From assembly GCA_001829155.1 (NCBI GenBank), contig MIAO01000144.1, positions 1 through 49,765 on the forward strand: a stretch of DNA of 49,765 nucleotides, read 5' to 3'. Position 1 is the stretch's first letter. Each line of letters starts with the position of its first letter. This DNA comes from Spirochaetes bacterium GWB1_36_13 (GTDB lineage Bacteria > Spirochaetota > GWB1-36-13). Positions 1 to 12,184 of the stretch are shown here, piece after piece. Below the pieces are notes generated by a model that was not told the DNA's origin, made no database searches, and saw only the letters and a program-made list of their open reading frames with translations. The translations under genes were made by a program, and so were the position numbers.

Positions 1-191
1 ATCATTTTTGGATCTGAAAAAGATTTCCTTGAATTTCTAGTAATAACTGTATATCTATACTTTGGATTAATTTTATTTTTTTTAAATGTAGATGAAATTA
101 AATCATGTAAGTATAAAATATCTTTTTTTTTCAAAGAGGTAGAGTTTATTAAGCTAATTTCCTCATTTGGAATATCAAATTCTTCAATCAA
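1..191 (-). CDS. Partial hypothetical protein; first cassette gene of the second (degenerate) integron-like platform
   Basis: TTG start at 191 preceded by AAGGAG; frame open to window edge (MIEEFDIPNEEISLINSTSLKKKDILYLHDL...); begins about 40 bp after GTTGGGT core at 234. Confidence 0.6.
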   Translation of the reverse strand, partial: MIEEFDIPNEEISLINSTSLKKKDILYLHDLISSTFKKNKINPKYRYTVITRNSRKSFSDPKM

Positions 192-225
192 ATTATTCTC
201 CTTTAAATCACATTTAACATGCATT

Positions 226-266
226 GCACCCAACTCCATATATACGACAAAACTTTCGTATATTCC
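226..266 (-). other. Putative attI-like site of second platform
   Basis: + strand gcacccAAC-tccat-atatacga-caaaactt-tcgtatat-tcc; same motif and same position (just 3' of an integrase stop) as 9700-9770; minus strand reads GTTGGGT (GTTRRRY). Confidence 0.7.
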
Positions 267-290
267 GGATACACTGGTAAAGTACGACAT

Positions 291-442
291 TTAATTATCC
301 AGCGGACTCCTTACATTTCTAATCGTCTGAGCGCTCACATGAGTATAAATCTCAGTTGTTTCACTCGATTTATGACCCAGTAATTCCTGAATCATCCTCA
401 AATCAGTTCACGCTTCTTTTTTATTTCCAATATTCTCTCCAC
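291..442 (-). pseudogene. Internally deleted integrase remnant
   Basis: GTG-ERILEIKK N-terminus nearly identical to 10834 start, fused out of frame to C-terminal [38 protein letters not shown] (cf. [39 protein letters not shown]); about 870 bp of the middle missing. Confidence 0.88.
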
Positions 443-525
443 AATTCAAAAATAAATATATAAAAAAATTTATAATAAGCAAAAAAATATTGACTCAACC
501 CTGAAAGCAGGCTAGGCGGGAAAAT

Positions 526-669
526 TTCAGATAATGTTCCCGCGATATGTGATGCTCCTGAGGCTTAGAAGGGTGCAGTCTGAGGGTCGTGAGCAGAGCG
601 AACCCCCGAAGCAAACCCTGTCCCGTCAGGGCTTGCCGATGGAGTATCATATATCGTGTGTTATGTGAA
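526..669 (-). repeat. attC-like recombination site (distal; belongs to RNase cassette)
   Basis: + strand ttcagatAAT-gttcc-cgcgatatgtgatgctcc ... ggagtatcatatatcgtg-t-GTTatgtgaa; long imperfect palindrome immediately after the stop of the 631-aa ORF. Confidence 0.8.
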
Positions 670-673
670 GGAT

Positions 674-2569
674 TTAGTTTTTAATTACTTGCTGTGTAGT
701 CTTAAAGTTTAGTTTCGCAATTTTAGTTAACTCTCCTTCTCCATTTTTTTCTATAATAGATTTTGTAACTTTTATTACCGTTTCATTTGCTCCTTTTGGA
801 ATAGTAATTCCATATTTTATTCCCATAGCTTCGATAGATGTTAAAAACCCTTCTCTTGCTAAAATAGATGCAGCTGCTACTGCAATATCTCTTTCAGCTT
901 TGTGAATTTGCAGTAACTCTATTTTTTTCCCATTTTCCATTAATGCCTTATTTATATATTCTTCATTTCCAAATTGGTCTGCAATTGCAGCTGTACAATC
1001 ATTTTTTATTAATAAGTTTTCGATTGCTCGTGCATGCCCCCATGCTAATAATTCGTTCATATTTTTCATTTTGTCGTATAACTCATTGTATTTTTCTGGA
1101 TTTATTTTAATAACACTATATTTATCTTCTCCTACAAGTCTCCTGATTTCTGGAGCCATTTCTTTAATTTTGCTATCACTTATTGTTTTACTATCTTTAA
1201 CGCCCAATGATTTTAATTTCTCGTTTGTTTCTTTATCAACATATACTCCAGCAATTACAATTGCTCCTAAGTAGTCACCTTTTCCAGATTCGTCAGTTCC
1301 AATATGTGATTCTTTTGTAAAACTTAGAAATTTTTCTTCTTTTTCTTTATTGATTTGATTAGAGTCTTTTTCTACATTTTGCACTACTAATAAATCTTTT
1401 TCTTCACTTTTATATGTTTCATCTTTTTTTGTTTGACAAATATCTTCATCCGTTAACCCCGCTCTTATCAAAATATTGTAGGCATCTCTCATACAAGCTT
1501 TTATTTCACCAACTTTATCAAATGCTTCCTCAGGATTTTGAATACAAATTATTCTTCTATCTCCTAATGGGTCAGAATGCATTTCTTTACATCTACTTCC
1601 TTCCCAAATTGCTATCATTTTTTCTAGAACATATCCATATCGTCTTTCATCTGTAATATATTTTTTAAATTTTAGTTTTCTCAATGCATTTCCTACATCG
1701 GCAATTTCAGGATTTTTCTTGTAATCTTCAATAGTGAAAAAGTCTTTTTCTATCATTATTTTTATTATAAATCCTTCATATACTTTGGCAAACTGTGCAA
1801 CTAAAAAATTATATTCATCCAATTTTTCACTTACTTTCTTAATAATTTCTACTAACGCTAATCCTGTTGAATATGTCTTCTTATCATTTTCAAACAAGTA
1901 ATCCTCAAATCCCTCTGGAAAATTTTTAACTCTTTCGTTCATCTTCAATAACATTTCTGAGTTTTCTTTAATTTCTTTCTCAATTTTATTTTTTTCTTTT
2001 GCAGAAACATAAAAAAGTGCTCTTTCCATATCATCCAAAGGCTTATAAGCATTTATTATTTCAGCAACTTTATCTATTAAGTCAGAATAAATTCCTTGAA
2101 CCACTAAATTTCCACTTTTATACAATGTAACAACACAAGAAAAGTCATAATAAGTTATTTTATATATAAATTCCTGATGTTCATGTTTTTCCAACTTCTC
2201 AATTTGAAAAGTATTTTCTATTGATTCTTTAATTATTTTTTGAATTTCAGTGTCTTGAATTTTGATTGATGCACTAACAGGAATTCTATTTTCAACTCCA
2301 TCAGGTTTTATTACTTTTAACTCTAAATTACTACAAAATATATTTTCAAAATCTTGTGTAGCCTTTTCAATTATAATTTTAGAAGAATTCTTACCTTTAA
2401 AATATATTATGATTGAAGCAAATTCTTTGGAATGTTCTATATTCAATTTATATCCACAACCGTTATTTATTTCTTTTTCTTCTATCACTTTTGCCCCAAT
2501 CTGACTTATTTTCTCTTTGACTATCATTATAGAATCTTCTTTTTGTTTTACAAATTCAATGCTTTTCAT
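674..2569 (-). CDS. RNase LS (RnlA-like, TBP-like domains + HEPN) fused to C-terminal RNase HIII-type domain
   Basis: C-terminal IGTDESGKGDY...GVKDSK...DQF...AVAAASILAR (RNase HII/HIII); TLYKSGNLVVQG TBP-like motif; middle EYNFLVAQFAKVYEGFI and R-x4-H (RCKEMH) resembling RnlA HEPN; RBS GAGGGG. Confidence 0.72.
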   Translation of the reverse strand: MKSIEFVKQKEDSIMIVKEKISQIGAKVIEEKEINNGCGYKLNIEHSKEFASIIIYFKGKNSSKIIIEKATQDFENIFCSNLELKVIKPDGVENRIPVSASIKIQDTEIQKIIKESIENTFQIEKLEKHEHQEFIYKITYYDFSCVVTLYKSGNLVVQGIYSDLIDKVAEIINAYKPLDDMERALFYVSAKEKNKIEKEIKENSEMLLKMNERVKNFPEGFEDYLFENDKKTYSTGLALVEIIKKVSEKLDEYNFLVAQFAKVYEGFIIKIMIEKDFFTIEDYKKNPEIADVGNALRKLKFKKYITDERRYGYVLEKMIAIWEGSRCKEMHSDPLGDRRIICIQNPEEAFDKVGEIKACMRDAYNILIRAGLTDEDICQTKKDETYKSEEKDLLVVQNVEKDSNQINKEKEEKFLSFTKESHIGTDESGKGDYLGAIVIAGVYVDKETNEKLKSLGVKDSKTISDSKIKEMAPEIRRLVGEDKYSVIKINPEKYNELYDKMKNMNELLAWGHARAIENLLIKNDCTAAIADQFGNEEYINKALMENGKKIELLQIHKAERDIAVAAASILAREGFLTSIEAMGIKYGITIPKGANETVIKVTKSIIEKNGEGELTKIAKLNFKTTQQVIKN

Positions 2570-2640
2570 CGTTCCCCTCTCTTTATAAAACTATTTTTAT
2601 TTTATAATATTTAGAATATAATTTCTTCGTTTTGAATCTT

Positions 2641-2804
2641 TCACCTAACATTTGCGACTATAAGACCGAGTAGGGTTTGCCATGAGCAAACCCGTAAGCG
2701 AGGCAAGGGAACGAAGTAACCGCAGCGTTCGGCTGAAAGCCGAATGTCGGGCGAAGCCCTGGAGGGCAGCTTGACTGCCCAGAGTGATAGTCGCTGTTGT
2801 GTGA
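2641..2804 (-). repeat. attC-like recombination site (belongs to membrane-protein cassette)
   Basis: + strand tcacctAAC-attt-gcgactat ... atagtcgc-t-GTTgtgtga; minus strand ends GTTAGGT; internal GC-rich sub-hairpins. Confidence 0.82.
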
Positions 2805-2815
2805 TGTAACTATTT

Positions 2816-3223
2816 TCACAGTGCGGCATTTTTCATTGGTTCTCTGTTAAAAAGATTATAAAAATAAAAACATAATACACCGATGAGAAAGGTAAAAAGG
2901 AAATTAACGATTGTGATTATTTCTATCTGTCCATTTATAATTTTAGTGAGAGAAAGCAAGATAGTTATTAACATGTGAAAAGCTCCGGATTTCACATATA
3001 CATTATTGAATGGGATTTTACTTTGTATTTTCAAAAATAATATGGAGAGGAGACCACCAATGGCTCCAACACCAACGATCAGAAAGAGCATAAAAATAAT
3101 CATTGATTTGATTTTGTCATTTTCAAATTTTATCGATCCAAGTATAATTAGATATAAAAAATTGAATATATATAAAATCATATATGCAATCATTCCGCCT
3201 AAAAATCCTTTTTTTAAATTCAT
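2816..3223 (-). CDS. Small multi-pass membrane protein, unknown function (cassette gene)
   Basis: 135 aa, about four hydrophobic segments, GGAG RBS, fills the space between two attC-like sites. Confidence 0.75.
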   Translation of the reverse strand: MNLKKGFLGGMIAYMILYIFNFLYLIILGSIKFENDKIKSMIIFMLFLIVGVGAIGGLLSILFLKIQSKIPFNNVYVKSGAFHMLITILLSLTKIINGQIEIITIVNFLFTFLIGVLCFYFYNLFNREPMKNAAL

Positions 3224-3269
3224 GTAAACTCCATGTTTTTATTTGCCGCACATTACGAAAATAGTTATT

Positions 3270-3453
3270 TCACACAATGTTCTGCGGCGAGATGCGGTAC
3301 CGAAAAGGGTAGTAGCCGCCACATACAATATTACTAACCTTAAAAATCTAAACCAAAAACTGGTGAAATAAAAGCCACATTTTTGGTATCGAGGGAAATC
3401 CGTAATTTTAGGATTTTTGATGATTTTCCCGTCATTGCGCCGCTGTTATATGA
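3270..3453 (-). repeat. attC-like recombination site (belongs to GNAT cassette)
   Basis: + strand tcacacAAT-gttct-gcggcg...ggtaccgaaaa ... ttttggtatc...cgccgc-t-GTTatatga. Confidence 0.75.
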
Positions 3454-3476
3454 TGGCGCGCATTCATTTAAAACAA

Positions 3477-4361
3477 CTATTTTAAAACAGAACAATAAAA
3501 AGGGTGGTAAAAATCTTCTTCATACCCCAATTTATTTGCAACTCTTCTTGAGCCAATATTATCAAAATTTGTTCCCCAAATTGGATTAAATCCATTTTCA
3601 AGACAATACATAATCATTGCTGCTGCTGGATATACTCCTAAACCTTGACCTCTAAAGTTTTGATCCGTTTCAATTCCAACATCAATCATATCATTTGAAA
3701 TAAATGAAGAAAATGATGTACTAACAACCATTTCGTCTTTTAGAAGGCAATAACCAATTCCTTTGCTTAAGAATTTTTCCATAGTGTCCCATGAAAAACT
3801 AGGTATGATTTTACCAGTGATTTTTATATAATTTTTCTCATCAATTCTTTTTAGTTTAAAACCTTTTGGAATCTGGTTAAAAAAGTCTTGTCGGTTGATA
3901 AATACAGATTTATTGAACTTGAATCGTACTCGTTCAAAGGCAAGAACATTTTCAGATAAAACTTTTTTTAGCGTTATTATTTTTTCATCTTGATCCAGGT
4001 TAGAGTCATTGCAAATCACTGAATAATCTTTTAGGCGATCTCCTAGCAAATTATTTAGTTTTTCATTCCAGGTATCAGGATATGTCACCAAGCGGATTTG
4101 TTTGGGTTTAGTATTAGCTTCTTTTAACATTATTTCAATCAGCTGATGATTAAATAAATCGTTGTTTTGATTTCCGCATAAAAGGGAGAATCCTGAAACA
4201 AAGTGAGAAATAAATGCCGTGTTAGGATGTTGAATATTGTCAACAAAAATAGAACCATTTTGTATTTGATCGATTACTGCTTGTGCAAACACTTTGTCAA
4301 AATTGACATCTTCAACAAGCGGCAAAACAAGATGATATTGGCTAGGTTCAATTTTAATCAT
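3477..4361 (-). CDS. GNAT family N-acetyltransferase (cassette gene)
   Basis: DVGIETDQNFRGQGLG acetyl-CoA motif and NIGSRRVANKLGY; start moved to MIKIEPSQ (4361, GGAG upstream) because the longer ORF begins inside the attC-like site. Confidence 0.85.
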   Translation of the reverse strand: MIKIEPSQYHLVLPLVEDVNFDKVFAQAVIDQIQNGSIFVDNIQHPNTAFISHFVSGFSLLCGNQNNDLFNHQLIEIMLKEANTKPKQIRLVTYPDTWNEKLNNLLGDRLKDYSVICNDSNLDQDEKIITLKKVLSENVLAFERVRFKFNKSVFINRQDFFNQIPKGFKLKRIDEKNYIKITGKIIPSFSWDTMEKFLSKGIGYCLLKDEMVVSTSFSSFISNDMIDVGIETDQNFRGQGLGVYPAAAMIMYCLENGFNPIWGTNFDNIGSRRVANKLGYEEDFYHPFYCSVLK

Positions 4362-4401
4362 AAGAAGATTACTCCATACTAAATATTTTTTTTGCGCGCT
4401 T

Positions 4402-4556
4402 TCATATAATGTTCCGTGTGTTGCCGAAGTTGCCAGCACCACAAACTTTATTTCTAAATTTACAAAATAATCCAAGCAAAACTAAATCTCCCAAATTCTA
4501 ACAAGATGCTGGCAATTTGGGTGAGCGCAGCGAACCGGCAACACACTGTTATCTGA
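4402..4556 (-). repeat. attC-like recombination site (belongs to R-M cassette)
   Basis: + strand tcatatAAT-gttcc-gtgtgttgccg-aagttgccagca ... tgctggcaattt...cggcaacacac-t-GTTatctga; arms near-identical to 7708-7872. Confidence 0.85.
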
Positions 4557-4597
4557 TGTGCCGTGCTAAATACCAATCAGTACGCCATGGATGGCGT

Positions 4598-5674
4598 TTA
4601 TTTATTTTTGTTTTGGTTTTCTAAATATTCTAAATATTTAATTATTTTTTTATATTCGATTAGTTGCATATATTCTTCCATGTAGTGATAATCTGGATTT
4701 TCATTCTCATTAATAGGTAATATTATACTCTCTTTTTCCAATCTTGTAGAACTTCTTTTATAGCCAAAATTGTATTTACCCCTTACTTTATCAGCAACAG
4801 TAGTTATAAAAGTTCCACTATATCTATTAATATTTGGACTGTATCCTAAGGTCATATCCGAAGTTGCAATAAAATCCTCAGCTTTATAAACTGAGTATCC
4901 CATAGAACCTTCTCCATTTCTTATAAATGCAATACAATTACCTTTCTGAATTAACTTATTATCTTTATTTACTTGGCACAAAACCCCATTATTTTGATTA
5001 GTTGCACCTAAATAATTAATTCCTTTTTTAGATTTGTTTAAATGATTCAAACCTTTAGATTTACCTGGTACTAACCTTTCAAAGAGTTTACCTATTTTAA
5101 ATTCTTTCCATTCTTTTTGTGATAAAAATTTCAGATTATTTGAATAATTAATACCTTCTATTTTAGACAATATATACTTCTTGTATTTTTCAATCAGAAG
5201 TTGCTCCTTATCTTGCATAAAAGATTCCATAAATTCATAGTCGGGTTTACCATTTAGATTTACAGGTAAAAGTATTTTTTCTTTTTTGATTCGATTATCG
5301 TTGATTTCACGGTTATAGCTATATTTTTCATCTAAACGCGAAACTATATTCGCAATAAATAGATAAATATATTTATTAAAATTAGGATTTTCCAATTTAG
5401 TAACATGATCACTAGCAATAAACCTATAAGGTTGGTAAAAACAAGCTCCGACACTTCCACTATTCGCAATAGATAAACAATTAGAAAAAATTCTCACATC
5501 AGATGTATTGCTTATAAAGTTATCAACTCCATTATTCAAGGCAGTTGAAGAAATATAAGGCATTTTTCCTAAAAAATGGTCATTAGTTTTAAGTCGCTTC
5601 CCTCTTTGGATATTAGGAAAAACCTCATTAATGAAAAATTCTTGCCATTTTAAACCGTTCAATCTGTTTTTCAT
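4598..5674 (-). CDS. Restriction specificity subunit (BcgIB-like, two TRDs)
   Basis: Two repeated W(Q/K)EF.I...I.LP.N....PDY..ME..M units; coupled to upstream methylase/nuclease. Confidence 0.85.
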   Translation of the reverse strand: MKNRLNGLKWQEFFINEVFPNIQRGKRLKTNDHFLGKMPYISSTALNNGVDNFISNTSDVRIFSNCLSIANSGSVGACFYQPYRFIASDHVTKLENPNFNKYIYLFIANIVSRLDEKYSYNREINDNRIKKEKILLPVNLNGKPDYEFMESFMQDKEQLLIEKYKKYILSKIEGINYSNNLKFLSQKEWKEFKIGKLFERLVPGKSKGLNHLNKSKKGINYLGATNQNNGVLCQVNKDNKLIQKGNCIAFIRNGEGSMGYSVYKAEDFIATSDMTLGYSPNINRYSGTFITTVADKVRGKYNFGYKRSSTRLEKESIILPINENENPDYHYMEEYMQLIEYKKIIKYLEYLENQNKNK

Positions 5675-5676
5675 AA

Positions 5677-7569
5677 TTATTCGTCCAACCCAAACAAATA
5701 ACCTTTGCCATGAGTTACCATATTAAACTCAAAAGTCAGGTAATCCGCCATAGTGTTTTCAAAATCCTCATCACATGGGATTTCATCATTAAAATAATAA
5801 AAAGAATGCAACCATTCATCTTCTGGCTCTATAATTGTTTTAACCATAAACCTACTTTCAGCAGGTGCATCATGTCTCCAACAAGATATTAAGCGAGCTT
5901 TTTTTTCTTTTGCTCTTTCTGTTTCTATAAGACCAATATGTTTATTAACAACAAATCCATCATCTTCAAAATTAATAAATTTACAATACTTTTCTTTTGG
6001 GTGGGGCTTGTGTGCTGTAAAAATAGCTATACATGTATTTGTACCTATCCCATAAAAAGTATTTTTATTAAGAGTTATAACACCTTCTAATGAGTGTTTT
6101 TCTAATATATTTTTTTTCACAAGTTTATCTTCATTGGTTTTCCCAACCATAGTTGATTGAGGAACAATCACTGCACATTTTGCGCCATCTGATAAAGAAT
6201 CTAATAAATGCTTGACAAAAGATATTTCAGTCAAATGCGCATTTTCTTTTACTTTTCCTTGAGAATAAGGAGGATTCATTAAACCAATTGTAAACTTATT
6301 TTTTTTAAATTCTTCAGCAGACCTATTTAAAAAATCATCACAAACAAGGTTACTTTTTCCATCTCCTCTTAAAATCATATTTGTAGTAGCAATTGAAAAC
6401 ATATCTTCTCTTACTTCTATACCAAATATTTGATCTTTTTTTATTTTATTTCTGTCTTTTGGTTCGGCTTTTTTTAACATATAGTGCATAGCTGCAATTA
6501 AAAAACTTCCTGTTCCACAACATGGGTCAAAAACAATATCAGAAGGTTGAATATCCAATAATTCACAAAACAATTCAGTAATATGTTTTGGAGTAAGTAC
6601 CACACCTAAAGTTTGACCATCGCCACCACTATACCTAATAAATTCACCATAAAATCGACCTAAAACATCTTCTGGAGTATTTGCAATGACAGATTTTAAA
6701 ATGTTATTTTTTAAGTATTCTGTAAAATATTTTAAAGGAGTCTTTTCTAATCGAGTATCTATGCGATTTAACAAAGTCCTGTCTTTTATTGTGGTGAATT
6801 GATTTAAAATTTTATCTTTTTTTGTTTCAGGTTGAACTTCTACCCTAGTCATATATGTGGAAAGTGCGTCAAATATTTTTTGCCCGTCTGTTTTTAAAGA
6901 ATCACCAATCAAGGAATCAATAGTAAATGAATTATCTTGTAACGCTAATAAAATAGCGGAAACAATAAGAGGTTTTTCTGAATCACCTAATTGGCCATAA
7001 TTTCTGAGATATTCATTAAGTTCTTTAGATTTGCTTAGAATATCTTCCAGTTCAAGAGCTTCAGCAGGTGTTTCTTTTAAAACTTGTTCTTTGTAATATT
7101 TTTCTATGTTTTCTTCAGAAAAATTTTCAAAGTTTTCAACATTTTGAAGAATCTTATACCCATTTTCATCAACATAAATAGGTTTAATTTTATGGTGTTT
7201 TTCATTTCCAGAACAACCAAAAGCAAATATTTTTTTAAAATTAGTTTTTGTAAAAATTTCTTGTGCATAATGGAGAGCTCCATTTTCAGCATAATCAGAA
7301 ATAGATTTATTATCCATTAATAATGTAAAGCCATCATCATTATCATAAATAGCTTGTTTATTTAAATCAGCTTTATCCTCAATAACAATAATAAAATCTT
7401 TTGATTTACCAACAAATTCAGGAAATCCACTTTTACCAGTTCCTTTTTTTGAAGCTGTTTTAAGGGCATCTTGTATTTCTTTTATATCGCTCCCATTTGG
7501 TGTAAATTTTATTTTTGCATTATTTAATAAATTTCCTATAAAAAAATCAGTCTTTCTTTCATTCGCCAT
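5677..7569 (-). CDS. Type IIB restriction-modification enzyme alpha subunit (BcgIA-like nuclease + N6-adenine methyltransferase)
   Basis: N-terminal ALKTASK.G.G..G.PEF...IEDK nuclease motif; DPCCGTGSFL (motif I), NPPY (motif IV); start at MANERKT with GGGG RBS (ORF track starts 7587). Confidence 0.85.
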   Translation of the reverse strand: MANERKTDFFIGNLLNNAKIKFTPNGSDIKEIQDALKTASKKGTGKSGFPEFVGKSKDFIIVIEDKADLNKQAIYDNDDGFTLLMDNKSISDYAENGALHYAQEIFTKTNFKKIFAFGCSGNEKHHKIKPIYVDENGYKILQNVENFENFSEENIEKYYKEQVLKETPAEALELEDILSKSKELNEYLRNYGQLGDSEKPLIVSAILLALQDNSFTIDSLIGDSLKTDGQKIFDALSTYMTRVEVQPETKKDKILNQFTTIKDRTLLNRIDTRLEKTPLKYFTEYLKNNILKSVIANTPEDVLGRFYGEFIRYSGGDGQTLGVVLTPKHITELFCELLDIQPSDIVFDPCCGTGSFLIAAMHYMLKKAEPKDRNKIKKDQIFGIEVREDMFSIATTNMILRGDGKSNLVCDDFLNRSAEEFKKNKFTIGLMNPPYSQGKVKENAHLTEISFVKHLLDSLSDGAKCAVIVPQSTMVGKTNEDKLVKKNILEKHSLEGVITLNKNTFYGIGTNTCIAIFTAHKPHPKEKYCKFINFEDDGFVVNKHIGLIETERAKEKKARLISCWRHDAPAESRFMVKTIIEPEDEWLHSFYYFNDEIPCDEDFENTMADYLTFEFNMVTHGKGYLFGLDE

Positions 7570-7707
7570 CTTATTCCCCAATTCCATAGTTTATGAATAA
7601 TTAGTAAGTCATTAAAATTTATAGTTTTTCTTCCCAAAAGTCATCTTTTATCTTTCTTAGCCTGCACGGATGCAGGCTCTTAATATACAAAACTCTGGCA
7701 CGGCATT

Positions 7708-7872
7708 TCAGATAACGTTCCGTGTGTTGCCGAAGTTGCCAGCCTAACATATAACACACTTTTAAATTTATTCAACAAATCACCCCAAAACCAACACCTG
7801 AAATATCAATATTGCTGGCAATTTGGGAGAGGGCGGCTCGCCCGCCCGAACCGGCAACACACTGTTATACGA
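7708..7872 (-). repeat. attC-like recombination site (belongs to TIR/cyclase cassette)
   Basis: + strand tcagatAAC-gttcc-gtgtgttgccg-aagttgccagc ... gctggcaattt...cggcaacacac-t-GTTatacga. Confidence 0.85.
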
Positions 7873-7915
7873 AGTTTTTAGCCTAAAAATAAAAAAACAT
7901 AATTAGGAATAATAA

Positions 7916-9091
7916 TTATTTTAATTTATATTCTAAAATATTTTGTTGTTTCCCGAACATAAAATCATTTAAATATTTGTAATAAAAAGAATATAATGGA
8001 GGCATATCATTAGTTTTCCATTCAACCTCAATATATGGTGTATCATCAGGAAGTATTCTAGGTAAATAATTTGAAATGTGAATAAACCCCTTGCCTTGAA
8101 AACCTTTATCAACTAAAGAAGCACCAAAAGGTATAAAGTGACTATATTCATAAATATTCAAGGTTATATTTGACTTCTGATTTAATGATTCATACCATTT
8201 TTTAATACTATCAATAGATAATGATTTTTCTTTTAAATTTAATTTTCCTACTTTAACCCCAAAAAATTCTTCTATTTGTTTTGATATTTCATCTTTGGCA
8301 TAATAAATATTTATTTTAATTTTTCTATGTTCATTAATATCAATTTGATTCAATATACTTGGTAAAGAAGGATGATAGATTCCAATAAATTCTAATTCTG
8401 CACTATGTTTTACTCGTTCAAGAAATTTTTCATCTAAATTCTTTTTTTTGGGGTAATCATTTGAATAAATATTAGTAAAATATTTTGTTAAAATCTTCGT
8501 ATTTTTACCATAATCTTTATTTTTATTACTTAAAATGATATTATAAACATTGTGTTCAAAACTATGTTTATCAATAACGGTATCTTCATCTATTAAAGTA
8601 AAAGACCAATCATCATTAATTTTAATTTTTCCACCTAAAGAGTCATTTTTTTTTCTTAAAAATTTATTATAGAAAGTTTTACTAACAATAATACCACCAT
8701 CATCAGCACCTGTAAGTATTCTTGCTGCATCATTTATTGTATTACCTATAATATTATTTTTTCGATTAATATCTTTAAGAACATTTACATCACCTACGTG
8801 AATTGCACACCTTATATCACAATCATTACTAATTGTCCAATCTATTATGCCAACAACTAATTCAAAAGATTTTAAATATGAAGAAGTCTTTATATTCTCA
8901 ATACCAGCAATAATCCCATCTCCCGTAGGAATTAAAATACAATCATTGTCAAGTATTTCATCATATAATAAATGATGAATCTCTTTCTGAAATCTTTTAA
9001 ATAAATCAATTTGTATTGGTTCATTATTTTTTGAATAACCAACTAAATCTAGATAAACAATTATATAAGATTTTGGCATGATTTTCTCCAA
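7916..9091 (-). CDS. Class III nucleotide cyclase domain fused to uncharacterised C-terminal alpha/beta domain
   Basis: YLDLVGYS, PTGDG, IRCAIHVGDV, GNTINDAARI cyclase motifs; C-terminal ~190 aa resembles DUF5919/PLD-like folds (low confidence). Confidence 0.8.
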   Translation of the reverse strand: MEKIMPKSYIIVYLDLVGYSKNNEPIQIDLFKRFQKEIHHLLYDEILDNDCILIPTGDGIIAGIENIKTSSYLKSFELVVGIIDWTISNDCDIRCAIHVGDVNVLKDINRKNNIIGNTINDAARILTGADDGGIIVSKTFYNKFLRKKNDSLGGKIKINDDWSFTLIDEDTVIDKHSFEHNVYNIILSNKNKDYGKNTKILTKYFTNIYSNDYPKKKNLDEKFLERVKHSAELEFIGIYHPSLPSILNQIDINEHRKIKINIYYAKDEISKQIEEFFGVKVGKLNLKEKSLSIDSIKKWYESLNQKSNITLNIYEYSHFIPFGASLVDKGFQGKGFIHISNYLPRILPDDTPYIEVEWKTNDMPPLYSFYYKYLNDFMFGKQQNILEYKLK

Positions 9092-9096
9092 GATAA

Positions 9097-9660
9097 TTAA
9101 TGTGTTATATTACAATTCTTACATTTACTATTATACCTCATCATATCCTGTGGATTAACAATAAATTGGTTTCTTGACGATCTTGCTTTATAAGCATCAT
9201 CAATCCAATCTCCTAATTGTTGAGGCGAATTTGGATATATATAATATCTTGCATAACAATCATTTAATTCTTTATTCCAATTTGATTCAAATCGAGGGGG
9301 TAAATATGCGCTATTTCCTTGGTTAGGTAATATTATCCCAATTAAACCATTGGGTATATAATTTATACCTTGTCTTAATGAACTTTTAATCTCCCAATCA
9401 ACATATCTTCGACTATGTGTACAACTTCCAATTAAGACAATAGTAACAGTAGTATCTTGTAAATAATCATTTCTTATTTTATTCATAACATAATCAGTAT
9501 TACTGCTATCAATAAAATCATCATTATCATTAGCACCTAATACAAAAGGTGTAAAAACGTTTTCTTGATTTGCAAAATAATCAATAAAACTATCAACTTC
9601 AACATTATCTCCTTTATAAAAAGAAATGAATACCTTTCTTTTAATACCATTATATGACAT
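9097..9660 (-). CDS. TIR domain protein (ThsB/MTH538-like, DUF1863)
   Basis: RKVFISF, IR..YL.DTTVTIVLIG, RRYVDWEI with catalytic Glu, PNGLIGI; GGAGG RBS. Confidence 0.88.
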   Translation of the reverse strand: MSYNGIKRKVFISFYKGDNVEVDSFIDYFANQENVFTPFVLGANDNDDFIDSSNTDYVMNKIRNDYLQDTTVTIVLIGSCTHSRRYVDWEIKSSLRQGINYIPNGLIGIILPNQGNSAYLPPRFESNWNKELNDCYARYYIYPNSPQQLGDWIDDAYKARSSRNQFIVNPQDMMRYNSKCKNCNITH

Positions 9661-9699
9661 TTTATTCCTCCAATTTTATTTTACATGGCTAAAAATTTT

Positions 9700-9770
9700 G
9701 TATAACTCAATATATACGAACTTCGCATATTACTCTTAATTCAATGGAATATGCGAAGTTCGTATATCCC
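9700..9770 (-). other. Putative attI-like site with perfect 20-bp inverted repeat
   Basis: gtatAAC (GTTATAC on minus) then tcaat and atatacgaacttcgcatatt (9712-9731) / aatatgcgaagttcgtatat (9748-9767); lies between integrase stop and first cassette. Confidence 0.72.
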
Positions 9771-9808
9771 TGTTTAATGGGTGTTTTTTAAGAACTTTTA
9801 TCTGTTTA

Positions 9809-10834
9809 TTATAAATCATCTATGGGGCTTCTTATATTTTTTAGTATTTTTGTGCTGACATGGGTATAAATCTCAGTTGTTTTGCTGGATTCATGACCCA
9901 ATAGTTCCTGTATTATTCTTAAATCAGTTCCGTTTTCCAGTAAATGCGTGGCAAAGCTATGTCTGAGGGAATGAATTCCTGCTTCTTTCTTTAAGCCGGA
10001 TTCTTTTATAGCATTTTCAAAAACTTTCTGTAATGAACGGGATGTAATTTTCTTTTCATTCCTCTGACCTTCAAAAAGCCAGAATTTAGGGTGATACGCA
10101 TGAAGGTATTCGTTTATATCTCTTGATACTTTATCAGACAAAAGAGTAGTTCTGTCCTTCTTCCCTTTTGCCCCTTTTATGATAAGGATTTTTCTCTCAA
10201 AATCTATATCCTGTATTCTTAAACTCACTGTTTCACTCACACGCAGACCCGCTGAATAAGTGATGGAAAGCATGAGTTTATGCTTGAGATTTTTAACGGA
10301 ATCAATCAGCCTTTTGACCTCTTCTTTACTCAGTACGACAGGTAGTTTTTTTTCTTTTTTAGCCCGTTTGATCTGATAAATAAAATTCTTGCCGAGAATA
10401 CTGCCATAATAAAACCTCAGAGCATTCATGGCACAGTTAAGAGTTGAAGCCGTTGCTTCTTTTTTATCGGCTAGGTAATCCAGATAATTTTTAATATCTG
10501 TTTGATTAATAAAATCGGGGGTTTTACCTGTAAAGGTCAATAGTTCTTTGTTATAAAATGTATATGATTTACTTGTTCTTAAACTATAGCCACGGATACG
10601 GGTTTCTTGAGCAATGGAATCTTTTAGTGGGACTAATTCGGATCCGAAAGAGACTTTAAAATGTTTTTCAAGGTAGTCTCTATTAGAGAGATTATCAGGA
10701 ATAATCCATATTTTTTTGTCAGAAACCCATTTTCTGCCGGATATTTTACGGATGAGTTCAATCAAAGAGGGATTGTATTCAATACTAACTTCAAGCATTC
10801 CGTTATTCTTTTTTATTTCCAATATTCTCTCCAC
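9809..10834 (-). CDS. Tyrosine recombinase, integron-integrase-like, lacking IntI-specific insertion, with extra N-terminal domain
   Basis: [40 protein letters not shown] (R-K-H-R-H-Y intact); SAM-like region RGYSLRTSKSY...ASTLNCAMNALRF; KLPVVLSKEEV. Confidence 0.92.
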   Translation of the reverse strand: MERILEIKKNNGMLEVSIEYNPSLIELIRKISGRKWVSDKKIWIIPDNLSNRDYLEKHFKVSFGSELVPLKDSIAQETRIRGYSLRTSKSYTFYNKELLTFTGKTPDFINQTDIKNYLDYLADKKEATASTLNCAMNALRFYYGSILGKNFIYQIKRAKKEKKLPVVLSKEEVKRLIDSVKNLKHKLMLSITYSAGLRVSETVSLRIQDIDFERKILIIKGAKGKKDRTTLLSDKVSRDINEYLHAYHPKFWLFEGQRNEKKITSRSLQKVFENAIKESGLKKEAGIHSLRHSFATHLLENGTDLRIIQELLGHESSKTTEIYTHVSTKILKNIRSPIDDL

Positions 10835-10848
10835 ATTTCCAAATTAAA

Positions 10849-10877
10849 AATATAACCAAAATCGATAGAGCAATCAA
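10849..10877 (-). promoter_or_regulatory. Possible sigma70-type integrase promoter
   Basis: TTGATT-17 nt-TATATT on minus strand, 14 nt before GTG; remnant copy has TTGCTT-16 nt-TATATT at the equivalent position. Confidence 0.4.
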
Positions 10878-10963
10878 AAAAATATTGAGTTCAGGTTTTT
10901 CTTGTTAGATTTTTCCCATAGGATCAAAGCTTAAGTCTTAAAGGACAAGACAGGATTTATTTA

Positions 10964-11636
10964 GTCGACCCTGAAAAACTCATTTTTCAAGTTCAAAAAG
11001 CTCAAAGATTTTTTGCCCACAAACCCCCATCCCCTTATCTCCCAGAGGAAGACAAGGGGAGTTTTAGGAATTACAGTATTGTTTTTCAATAATAATTTAT
11101 TTACATTACCTAACGGTAAAAAAGGAAATTAATTTCAAAATTCCTTCTATTCAGGTTTCTCATTTTATTTTCATTTTAGCATTCATCTGCCCCTCCGTTC
11201 GGCGTCCTGCCGAAAGTCGGGAAATCTTTTTTCTGTTTGGAATTCTCGTATGCAAATTCTCCTAATTTGCATTAAAACCATTTATTATCAAGAATTATTT
11301 TAAGACTTTTATCTCTTTAACCCTGCACGAGGCAGGGTTTCCTCCGTCCGACTTGATTTCACGGATGAAATCACGGAGGACTCCCCCTTGTCCTTAAAGA
11401 TTTAAGGATAAGGGGTTAGGGGTTTGGATTTGAAACCCGCTGGAATAGTCTTAAAATAAGCTGATTCGAGTCCAATCAGAATAAATCTTCAAGACAGTTC
11501 AAAAAAGAATGTGCTGAAAAAACCTCGATTTTTACCAGATTATTGACAAAAGAATAAAAAAACTTGCAAAATTTTTGACTCTTTTTTATAAATTTTTCTT
11601 TACTGTAAAAGATTTCTTGACTTTTTCAGGGTCGAC
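10964..11636. mobile_element. Non-autonomous MITE-like element (673 bp)
   Basis: Terminal inverted repeats gtcgaccctgaaaaa(c/g)tca (15 bp perfect, 18/19), flanked by direct repeat tattta (10958-10963, 11637-11642); no long ORF; nested internal inverted repeats. Confidence 0.8.
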
Positions 11637-12184
11637 TATTTAAATAACTGGTTGAAAGTGTCTTTTGAAAACTGGTGGTTGATAATCTCGGTTTCTTCTG
11701 CCGGATCTTCCGGTTCCTGAGTGAAAAAATAATGAAAACTGATAAACTCTTCCTCTTTCTGAAATCCGAATTTCTGGTAGAGTTTTTGAGCGTTTGAATT
11801 CTCCAGTGCGGTGGAAAGGGTGAGGCCTTTTGCATTTTGATTCCGGGCAAATTCCTTCGCGCGGGTTAAGAGGGCAAAGGCGATTCCTTCTTTTCGAAAC
11901 GGTTCATCGACAAAAAGGTCGTTTAAAATCAGAAGCGGTTTCATCGATACGGAGGAAAAAGTGGGGTAGAGCTGGGTAAACCCGAAGACTATTTTAGGAT
12001 CATTAAAATCATGCGCAAAAAACAAATAAGACTCTTGATTTTGAAACCTCTCCATCAAAAAGGCTCCGGCTCCTGAGAGAAAACTTTTTTGCCCGTAAAA
12101 AATCCTGTATTGGTCAAAAAGCGGAGCAATCAGAGAAATATCTGTCAATTCAGCTTCTTTAATCTTAAATTGAAAATTTTTCAT
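11636..12184 (-). CDS. GNAT family N-acetyltransferase
   Basis: LFDQYRIFY, FTQLYPTFSSVSM, LNDLFV.EPFRKEGIA, NSNAQKLYQKFGF. Confidence 0.88.
   Translation of the reverse strand: MKNFQFKIKEAELTDISLIAPLFDQYRIFYGQKSFLSGAGAFLMERFQNQESYLFFAHDFNDPKIVFGFTQLYPTFSSVSMKPLLILNDLFVDEPFRKEGIAFALLTRAKEFARNQNAKGLTLSTALENSNAQKLYQKFGFQKEEEFISFHYFFTQEPEDPAEETEIINHQFSKDTFNQLFK

Follow-up and report, generated by a model that had tools for sequence, protein, structure and literature searches.

Integron integrases carry an additional IntI-specific domain around patch III that is treated as defining for them (PMC9668308, citing Messier and Roy 2001), classical integrons recombine the bottom strand (PMC2727003), complete integrons are rare in Bacteroidetes and Firmicutes according to the IntegronFinder 2.0 paper (PMC9024848), and in the pdif modules of Acinetobacter plasmids resistance genes are flanked by Xer sites (PMC7399989). 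We compared with these systems an integron-like array on contig MIAO01000144.1 (C144) of Spirochaetes bacterium GWB1_36_13. The whole contig of 49,765 bp, part of a 3.04-Mb draft genome with 36% G+C, is the window analysed here. The array is read on the - strand across bases 1-10,834 and comprises a tyrosine recombinase gene, a junction region and five cassettes, all co-oriented (Table 1), and the feature under study is the pairing between the two ends of each cassette.

Like classical integrons, the array has co-oriented cassettes, each with a terminal imperfect palindrome set between ...AAC and GTT... and a start that complements the cassette's own inverse core; at the head of the array are a recombinase gene and an attI-like junction, and its cargo is of the defence type. 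The recombinase gene is oriented as the cassettes are, as in the array of a true IntI from the same phylum (genome G015). Unlike in classical integrons, the recombinase is without the IntI-specific insert, own ends pair over 16-33 nucleotides (nt) rather than 7-12 (class 1) or ~8 (G015), position 11 of the stem holds an invariant A.C/T.G pair, a one-sided 4-nt bulge forms the spacer between the R and L arms, and the attI region is itself a perfect 19-nt palindrome. With XerA and XerC/D the recombinase shares its length and an architecture without the IntI insert, and it passes the cut-off of the XerA model; it differs from Xer at dif in its extra N-terminal domain and in standing beside a cassette array with folded sites instead of a single 28-bp dif. 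Genes in pdif modules likewise sit between tyrosine-recombinase sites, and their ends are inverted copies as well, but those sites are conserved double-stranded XerC/D sites, whereas each cassette here has inverted ends of its own, flanking a hairpin core that is separate from them. A full-text literature search, limited to papers outside subscription, yielded no account of extended stems private to their cassettes, of a wobble at position 11 or of cassette arrays whose recombinase has no insert.

Complementary ends of the five cassettes

The first-pass annotation of this DNA had claimed that every cassette has mutually complementary ends reaching beyond the 7-bp core, and that each pair of ends is specific to its cassette and does not fit the neighbours. 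We compared left ends with the reverse complements of right ends, counting identical positions among positions 8-20. The end sequences quoted there are present in the DNA, and both claims held, with small corrections to the coordinates. The ends are complementary in all five cassettes (660-9706) over 16 to ~33 nt, the longest pair, that of the membrane cassette, requiring one indel. Own ends were identical at 8 (RNase cassette), 11 (membrane), 9 (GNAT), 10 (restriction-modification, R-M) and 11 (TIR) of the 13 positions, whereas the 25 non-own pairings averaged 4.4 of 13 and never exceeded 8. With the count restricted to positions 12-20, the same cassettes gave 5, 9, 7, 8 and 9 of 9, and the non-own pairings averaged 2.2 and reached 5 of 9 at most. 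Among 199,459 random GTT/AAY-anchored pairs drawn from the window, only 0.047% reached 10 of 13. Own-end specificity is thereby established for this array. The complementary arms are located outside the open reading frames (ORFs), and the pairing gives independent evidence that the cassette borders lie at AAC/GTT, as had also been proposed; the reverse-complemented right ends of the GNAT and membrane cassettes read ATT instead of GTT.

The stems have a common anatomy, observed in all five cassettes. Their first ~9-10 positions are semi-conserved (RTTRNNYGAW), and since this arm is common to the cassettes, neighbouring ends still pair partly. In every cassette the pair at position 11 is a G.T wobble on the + (bottom) strand and A.C on the coding strand, and so is Watson-Crick in none; three of the five have T.T at position 10. 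The remainder of each stem is a private clamp, differing from cassette to cassette, whose length ranges from 4 to more than 20 bp. Across the five stems 13 positions depart from Watson-Crick pairing; on the + strand nine of these are wobbles (G.T or T.G) and A.C does not occur among them, so that the strand opposite the genes, the one recombined in classical integrons, folds better. The position-11 pair, the semi-conserved first 10 positions and the absence of the IntI domain from the recombinase had no place in the earlier reading.

Five inter-cassette sites of 124-166 nt, G+C-rich palindromes that fold as hairpins, separate these ends. Each begins directly after ...AAC and stops directly before GTT or ATT, and the first base of the core is A, not G, at three of six junctions. 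The folds of the attC sites show a one-sided 4-nt bulge and a side hairpin, with no clear pair of single extrahelical bases; on the bottom strand this bulge separates the R arm from the inner L stem. The variable cores could not be aligned by MAFFT; those at 7717-7863 and 4411-4547 share 71% identity. Because these two near-identical cores run into unrelated private sequence right after GTTAT, the crossover should lie within or next to AAC/GTT. The start of private sequence directly after the triplets and the wobbles favouring the bottom strand would, indirectly, fit recombination of the folded bottom strand with cleavage in AA|C. Read from the sequence, the two ends of a cassette would be one stem that integration splits.

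We circularised the cassettes in silico and folded the + (bottom) strand with 25-nt flanks. Own (circular) versus integrated sites gave -39.2/-28.1, -36.7/-24.4, -43.1/-29.9, -48.9/-35.4 and, for the RNase cassette, -27.6/-27.1 kcal/mol. In four of the five cassettes the circles were ~10 kcal/mol more stable than integrated or chimeric sites, and the own end had the lowest energy among six donors in every one of the five rows. Shuffling the outer arm equalled the own value in none of 200 shuffles in four cassettes and in one of 200 in the RNase cassette; flanks of 35 nt gave the same picture. On the top strand the circular fold was weaker than on the bottom strand in four of the five cassettes. 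The expectation that excision gives a circle whose stem is both longer and more stable than that of the integrated site was thus borne out for four cassettes, for which the energy gain on circularisation can be taken as established, and the further suggestion that this favours integration over excision fits the predicted fold energies.

An insert-less recombinase and its relatives, with classical controls

The recombinase matches Pfam families PF00589 (1.2e-41) and PF13495, with residues R198, H288, R291, H314 and Y323 of the catalytic site invariant in the alignment. It scores 234.6 against the XerA equivalog model of NCBIfam (NF040815, cut-off 220), whose NCBI name covers "tyrosine recombinase/integron integrase". 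The integron integrase model TIGR02249 gives 226.8, below its cut-off of 265, in a two-piece match that leaves profile positions 179-232 unmatched. Aligned with the true IntIs of three genomes of the same phylum (G015, G008 and G002), the recombinase and eight relatives have gaps of 31 and 10 amino acids (aa), and the 31-residue segment is the IntI-specific domain. On the evidence of its sequence, then, the recombinase does not have the defining feature of integron integrases; the array nevertheless appears to work like an integron. The predicted model of the protein has a mean predicted local distance difference test (pLDDT) score of 85.6, and the solved structures nearest to it are those of VchIntIA (2a3v) and archaeal XerA (5hxy, 4a8e). 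Residues 1-65 form a beta-beta-alpha-beta-beta-alpha domain (pLDDT ~83-89) that has no Pfam match and is common to most relatives and to the true IntI of G015; going by the model, it may be an extra DNA-binding module. Other Xer-like genes are present in the same genome, and the context beside a cassette array argues for a role other than dif-site chromosome dimer resolution.

In a scan of one genome per species we found at least 575 loci encoding relatives of the recombinase and kept 80, from phyla that include Spirochaetota, Bacteroidota, Nitrospirota, Bacillota, Ignavibacteriota and several archaeal groups. Arrays lie downstream of the recombinase in many of these loci. Sites were located there with a finder that uses the hairpin core and the 7-nt boxes only and demands a 9-of-10 L stem, and pairing beyond position 7 was given an extension score (+1 for a match, -1 for a mismatch, -1.5 for a gap). 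Own pairs from 68 cassettes in 19 arrays scored at least 4 in 42 cases and at least 6 in 32, compared with 64 and 21, respectively, of 388 non-own pairs. Thirty ungapped cassettes from 11 arrays, picked solely by identity at positions 12-15, all have A in the start and C in the end at position 11 (coding strand). In one genome (G036) the position-11 pair occurs in 11 of the 12 cassettes adjoining the recombinase, and most stems there are 16-20 nt long. The 31 columns of the IntI insert hold no residue in the recombinases of 18 of the 19 arrays, the remaining one (L035) being unreadable through a frame problem. Recurrence of the extended pairing beside homologous recombinases is established by these counts. 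One locus (L015, G019) had a single attC-like site only, and a cyanobacterial plasmid integron (L118) had no usable consecutive sites.

For the controls alone, that is G015 and class 1 arrays, we used a fold-based site finder, which is blind to weak integrated R boxes. The integrase of G015 is a true IntI, scoring 504 bits, and the sites of its array are 58 nt long; across the 27 cassettes own-end identity exceeds that of non-own pairs no further than position 8 and falls to background at position 9, and extension scores, with a median of 1, do not rise above 3.5, so the long stem is absent from this true-IntI array. In eight class 1 cassettes from three plasmids (loci L115-L117), own-end pairing never extends past position 12. 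It is perfect over 12 nt, five bases beyond the 7-bp core, in aadB, aadA2 and aacA4, in all three of which position 11 is a normal A.T pair, and shorter in orfF (~10 nt), qnrVC1 (9), dfrA14 (8) and dfrA12 (7). About 12 nt is the length that a tyrosine-recombinase arm would need. The first-pass statement that classical cassettes re-pair only the R box is accordingly too strict, even if none of the eight goes beyond 12 nt, and free classical cassettes pair further than the conventional 7-bp R box implies. That annotation had also named comparable extensions that are routine in canonical cassettes without effect on recombination as a finding that would count against it, and here the outcome is mixed: pairing up to ~12 nt is ordinary in class 1, and 16-33-nt stems with a fixed wobble occur in neither control.

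A proposed split recombination stem and competing explanations

We consider it probable, though by no means certain, that the five units are integron-like gene cassettes served by an Xer/IntI-type recombinase that has no IntI domain, and that their ends are the halves of a split recombination stem. This stem would consist of the ~10-bp RTTRNNYGAW arm, the non-Watson-Crick pair at position 11 and the private clamp. The crossover would take place inside it, at the AAC/GTT triplet and at least 15 bp from the stem base, and a crossover so placed would split the stem on integration, one half staying promoter-proximal in the cassette and the other at the far end, beside the hairpin core. Positions 1-11, arm and wobble together, may be the full binding site of the cleaving recombinase monomer; an ~11-bp arm beside the cleavage point would be Xer-like. 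By analogy with classical attC, the T.G wobble, which lies roughly one turn of the helix away from where cleavage would occur, could mark the recombinogenic bottom strand and do the job of the extrahelical bases, which are read there by the IntI insert absent here. The private clamp, again by analogy, would close the A+T-rich arm in the free circle and not in the array; the circle would then be the better substrate, and integration would exceed excision. It might also limit mis-pairing between neighbouring sites.

The array could instead be an unremarkable sedentary chromosomal integron, its long ends an ordinary feature in that the R arm of every attC exceeds the 7-bp box. The general layout is indeed present (recombinase, attI-like site, co-oriented cassettes with AAC...GTT palindromes), and pairing in class 1 reaches 12 nt in three cassettes and 8-10 nt in others. 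We regard this as unlikely given the limits of position 12 in class 1 and position 8 in G015, against 16 to ~33 nt here, given the Watson-Crick pair of the three 12-nt class 1 cases where A.C/T.G is invariant here, and given a recombinase from which the defining IntI insert is absent. The invariant pair also bears on the idea, raised in the first-pass annotation, that the ends record how cassettes are made, and thus on the reading of complementary ends as a neutral, unselected scar of that process, such as a long palindromic element captured with the gene. The clamp sequence is private to each cassette, as a scar would allow; to our knowledge no protein reads such a clamp, and we know of no solution to the question of cassette genesis. 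Against this, the A.C pair is flanked by perfect pairs in all 30 cassettes, in arrays from several phyla; templated copying of one arm from the other cannot explain it, and a neutral pair would decay. The predominance of bottom-strand wobbles among the non-Watson-Crick positions, with no A.C on that strand, and the retention of pairing in arrays with wholly different cassettes point the same way, and we disfavour a scar, which has only a small chance of being the right account.

Since the arms sit in the untranslated ends of co-transcribed cassettes, the 5' and 3' ends of a transcript might pair to stabilise, insulate or terminate the message. On the mRNA-sense strand, however, the odd pair is A.C, which does not pair, and T.G falls on the opposite strand in 30 of 30 cassettes, the arms are not followed by a T-run, and the circular fold is mostly weaker on the top strand, all of which makes pairing at the RNA level very improbable. 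Hardly any weight, and the least of all, goes to the units being transposon-like, that is, miniature inverted-repeat transposable elements (MITEs) or insertion sequences with terminal inverted repeats: the geometry of inverted ends is shared, but the repeats are private to each unit and begin exactly at the AAC/GTT triplets of the hairpin sites, there is no target duplication and no transposase, and the units stand head to tail beside a tyrosine recombinase.

Several points weigh against the split-stem reading itself. The RNase cassette gains only 0.5 kcal/mol on circularisation. Class 1 pairing runs to 12 nt, so part of the extension is ordinary and the difference from this array, at 15-35 nt against at most 12, is one of degree. 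Among the relatives, 26 of 68 cassettes score below 4, some of which may be cassettes fused through a missed attC, and the stem is only ~15 nt long in Bacteroidota. The attC finders are ad hoc, that for the relatives missing sites, making fused pseudo-cassettes and giving scattered matches on the opposite strand, and the relatives' cassettes are not independent (kin arrays and duplicated cassettes, e.g. L031). What the wobble and the clamp are suggested to do is argued by analogy. Finally, the public contigs of the source groundwater metagenome contain no circle or deletion junction that can be assigned to the array. Two joints there, 4551 to 9694 and 4551 to 9703, were set aside: each occurs in one contig, with a short side of 28-30 nt, and neither can be assigned, because three other array heads share the attI half-site. 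Partial cover in a second sample was likewise given no weight.

More tentatively, and with rather less confidence than in the split stem, we suggest a separate gene-capture lineage across many phyla (among them Spirochaetota, Bacteroidota, Nitrospirota, Bacillota and several archaeal groups), whose recombinase would read a split R arm of at least 15 bp, with the T.G wobble as a mark of strand and polarity, and private clamps as a one-way valve; it could be the state from which classical integrons arose. If the arrays are active, integron-like gene capture would be far more widespread than surveys keyed on the IntI domain report: homologous recombinases with arrays occur in both Bacteroidota and Bacillota, and standard integron finders would miss such arrays, their recombinase being without the IntI insert. 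The split stem would also offer a means of calling cassette borders and the crossover point from sequence only, and the wobble and private clamp, as simple and mutable features, make strand choice without the IntI domain and the balance of integration and excision testable.

Array layout, junction regions and repeats

The features of the array are listed in Table 1.

Table 1. Features of the integron-like array in the window. The first coordinate of each cassette is its left end (G of GTT on the + strand), the second its right end (last base).
Feature	Position	Strand	Description
Tyrosine recombinase	9809-10834	-	341 aa; Xer/IntI-related; without IntI-specific insert; extra N-terminal domain of ~65 aa
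Putative attI	9707-9775	-	Junction with cassette 1 at 9706/9707
Cassette 1 (TIR)	7864-9706	-	ThsB-like TIR protein and 391-aa protein of unknown function
Cassette 1 arms	7864-7883 and 9687-9706		Further AT-rich pairing outside the arms
Cassette 1 attC core	7717-7863	-	4-nt bulge, L stem, variable loop (fold)
Cassette 2 (R-M)	4548-7716	-	Type IIG restriction-methylase and specificity subunit
Cassette 2 arms	4548-4566 and 7698-7716
Cassette 2 attC core	4411-4547	-	Fold
Cassette 3 (GNAT)	3445-4410	-	GNAT acetyltransferase
Cassette 3 arms	3445-3462 and 4393-4410
Cassette 3 attC core	3279-3444	-	Fold
Cassette 4 (membrane)	2796-3278	-	135-aa protein, no family match; membrane protein according to the first-pass annotation
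Cassette 4 arms	2796-2828 and 3244-3278		~33 nt with one indel
Cassette 4 attC core	2650-2795	-	Fold
Cassette 5 (RNase)	660-2649	-	631-aa protein, C-terminal RNase HII/HIII domain
Cassette 5 arms	660-675 and 2634-2649		Weakest pair of the five
Cassette 5 attC core	536-659	-	Fold
Next unit	1-535	-	Cut by contig end; R'-type arm at 535

The cargo of 660-9706 is largely defence-like (ThsB-type TIR protein with its partner, Type IIG R-M with specificity subunit, RNase H-domain fusion). The perfect 19-nt inverted repeat of the putative attI has its arms at 9712-9730 and 9749-9767. These palindrome arms (9712-9767) have an 8-nt motif in common with the R arm of cassette 1 (7864-7876), and the R-arm consensus of the cassettes resembles the attI arms; the cassette-1 arm may resemble most of the 13-bp arm of loxP as well. 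The sole match in an Rfam scan of 1-12000 (E up to 1) was a chance match of a microRNA family on the attI palindrome.

The same 24-nt half of the attI region as in the window stands directly after the cassette end at three other array heads of the genome, on contigs C148 (position 3068), C11 (34436) and C138 (- strand), where shared sequence and no recombinase gene follow the half-site; one recombinase may serve several arrays of the genome. The single-cassette arrays on C148 and C11 have 17-nt stems with the same position-11 pair. The ends of the C138 cassette do not match, and an undetected site may separate them.

Within the truncated next unit, an internally deleted copy of the recombinase gene lies at 333-409 and 414-493 (84% identical to 9854-9930 and 10806-10888 by blastn), followed by a second attI-like palindrome and GTT junction near 235. 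The sequence of 230-535 suggests a duplicated, decayed platform inside or after the array. Contigs C31 and C75 hold similar remnants. A repeat at 10957-11645, located between the recombinase gene and the gene beyond it, has inverted ends of ~22 nt (10957-10978 and 11618-11645); more than 25 contigs of the genome carry matches to parts of this repeat (85-92% identity), these parts have very high depth in the metagenome contigs, and the repeat looks MITE-like.

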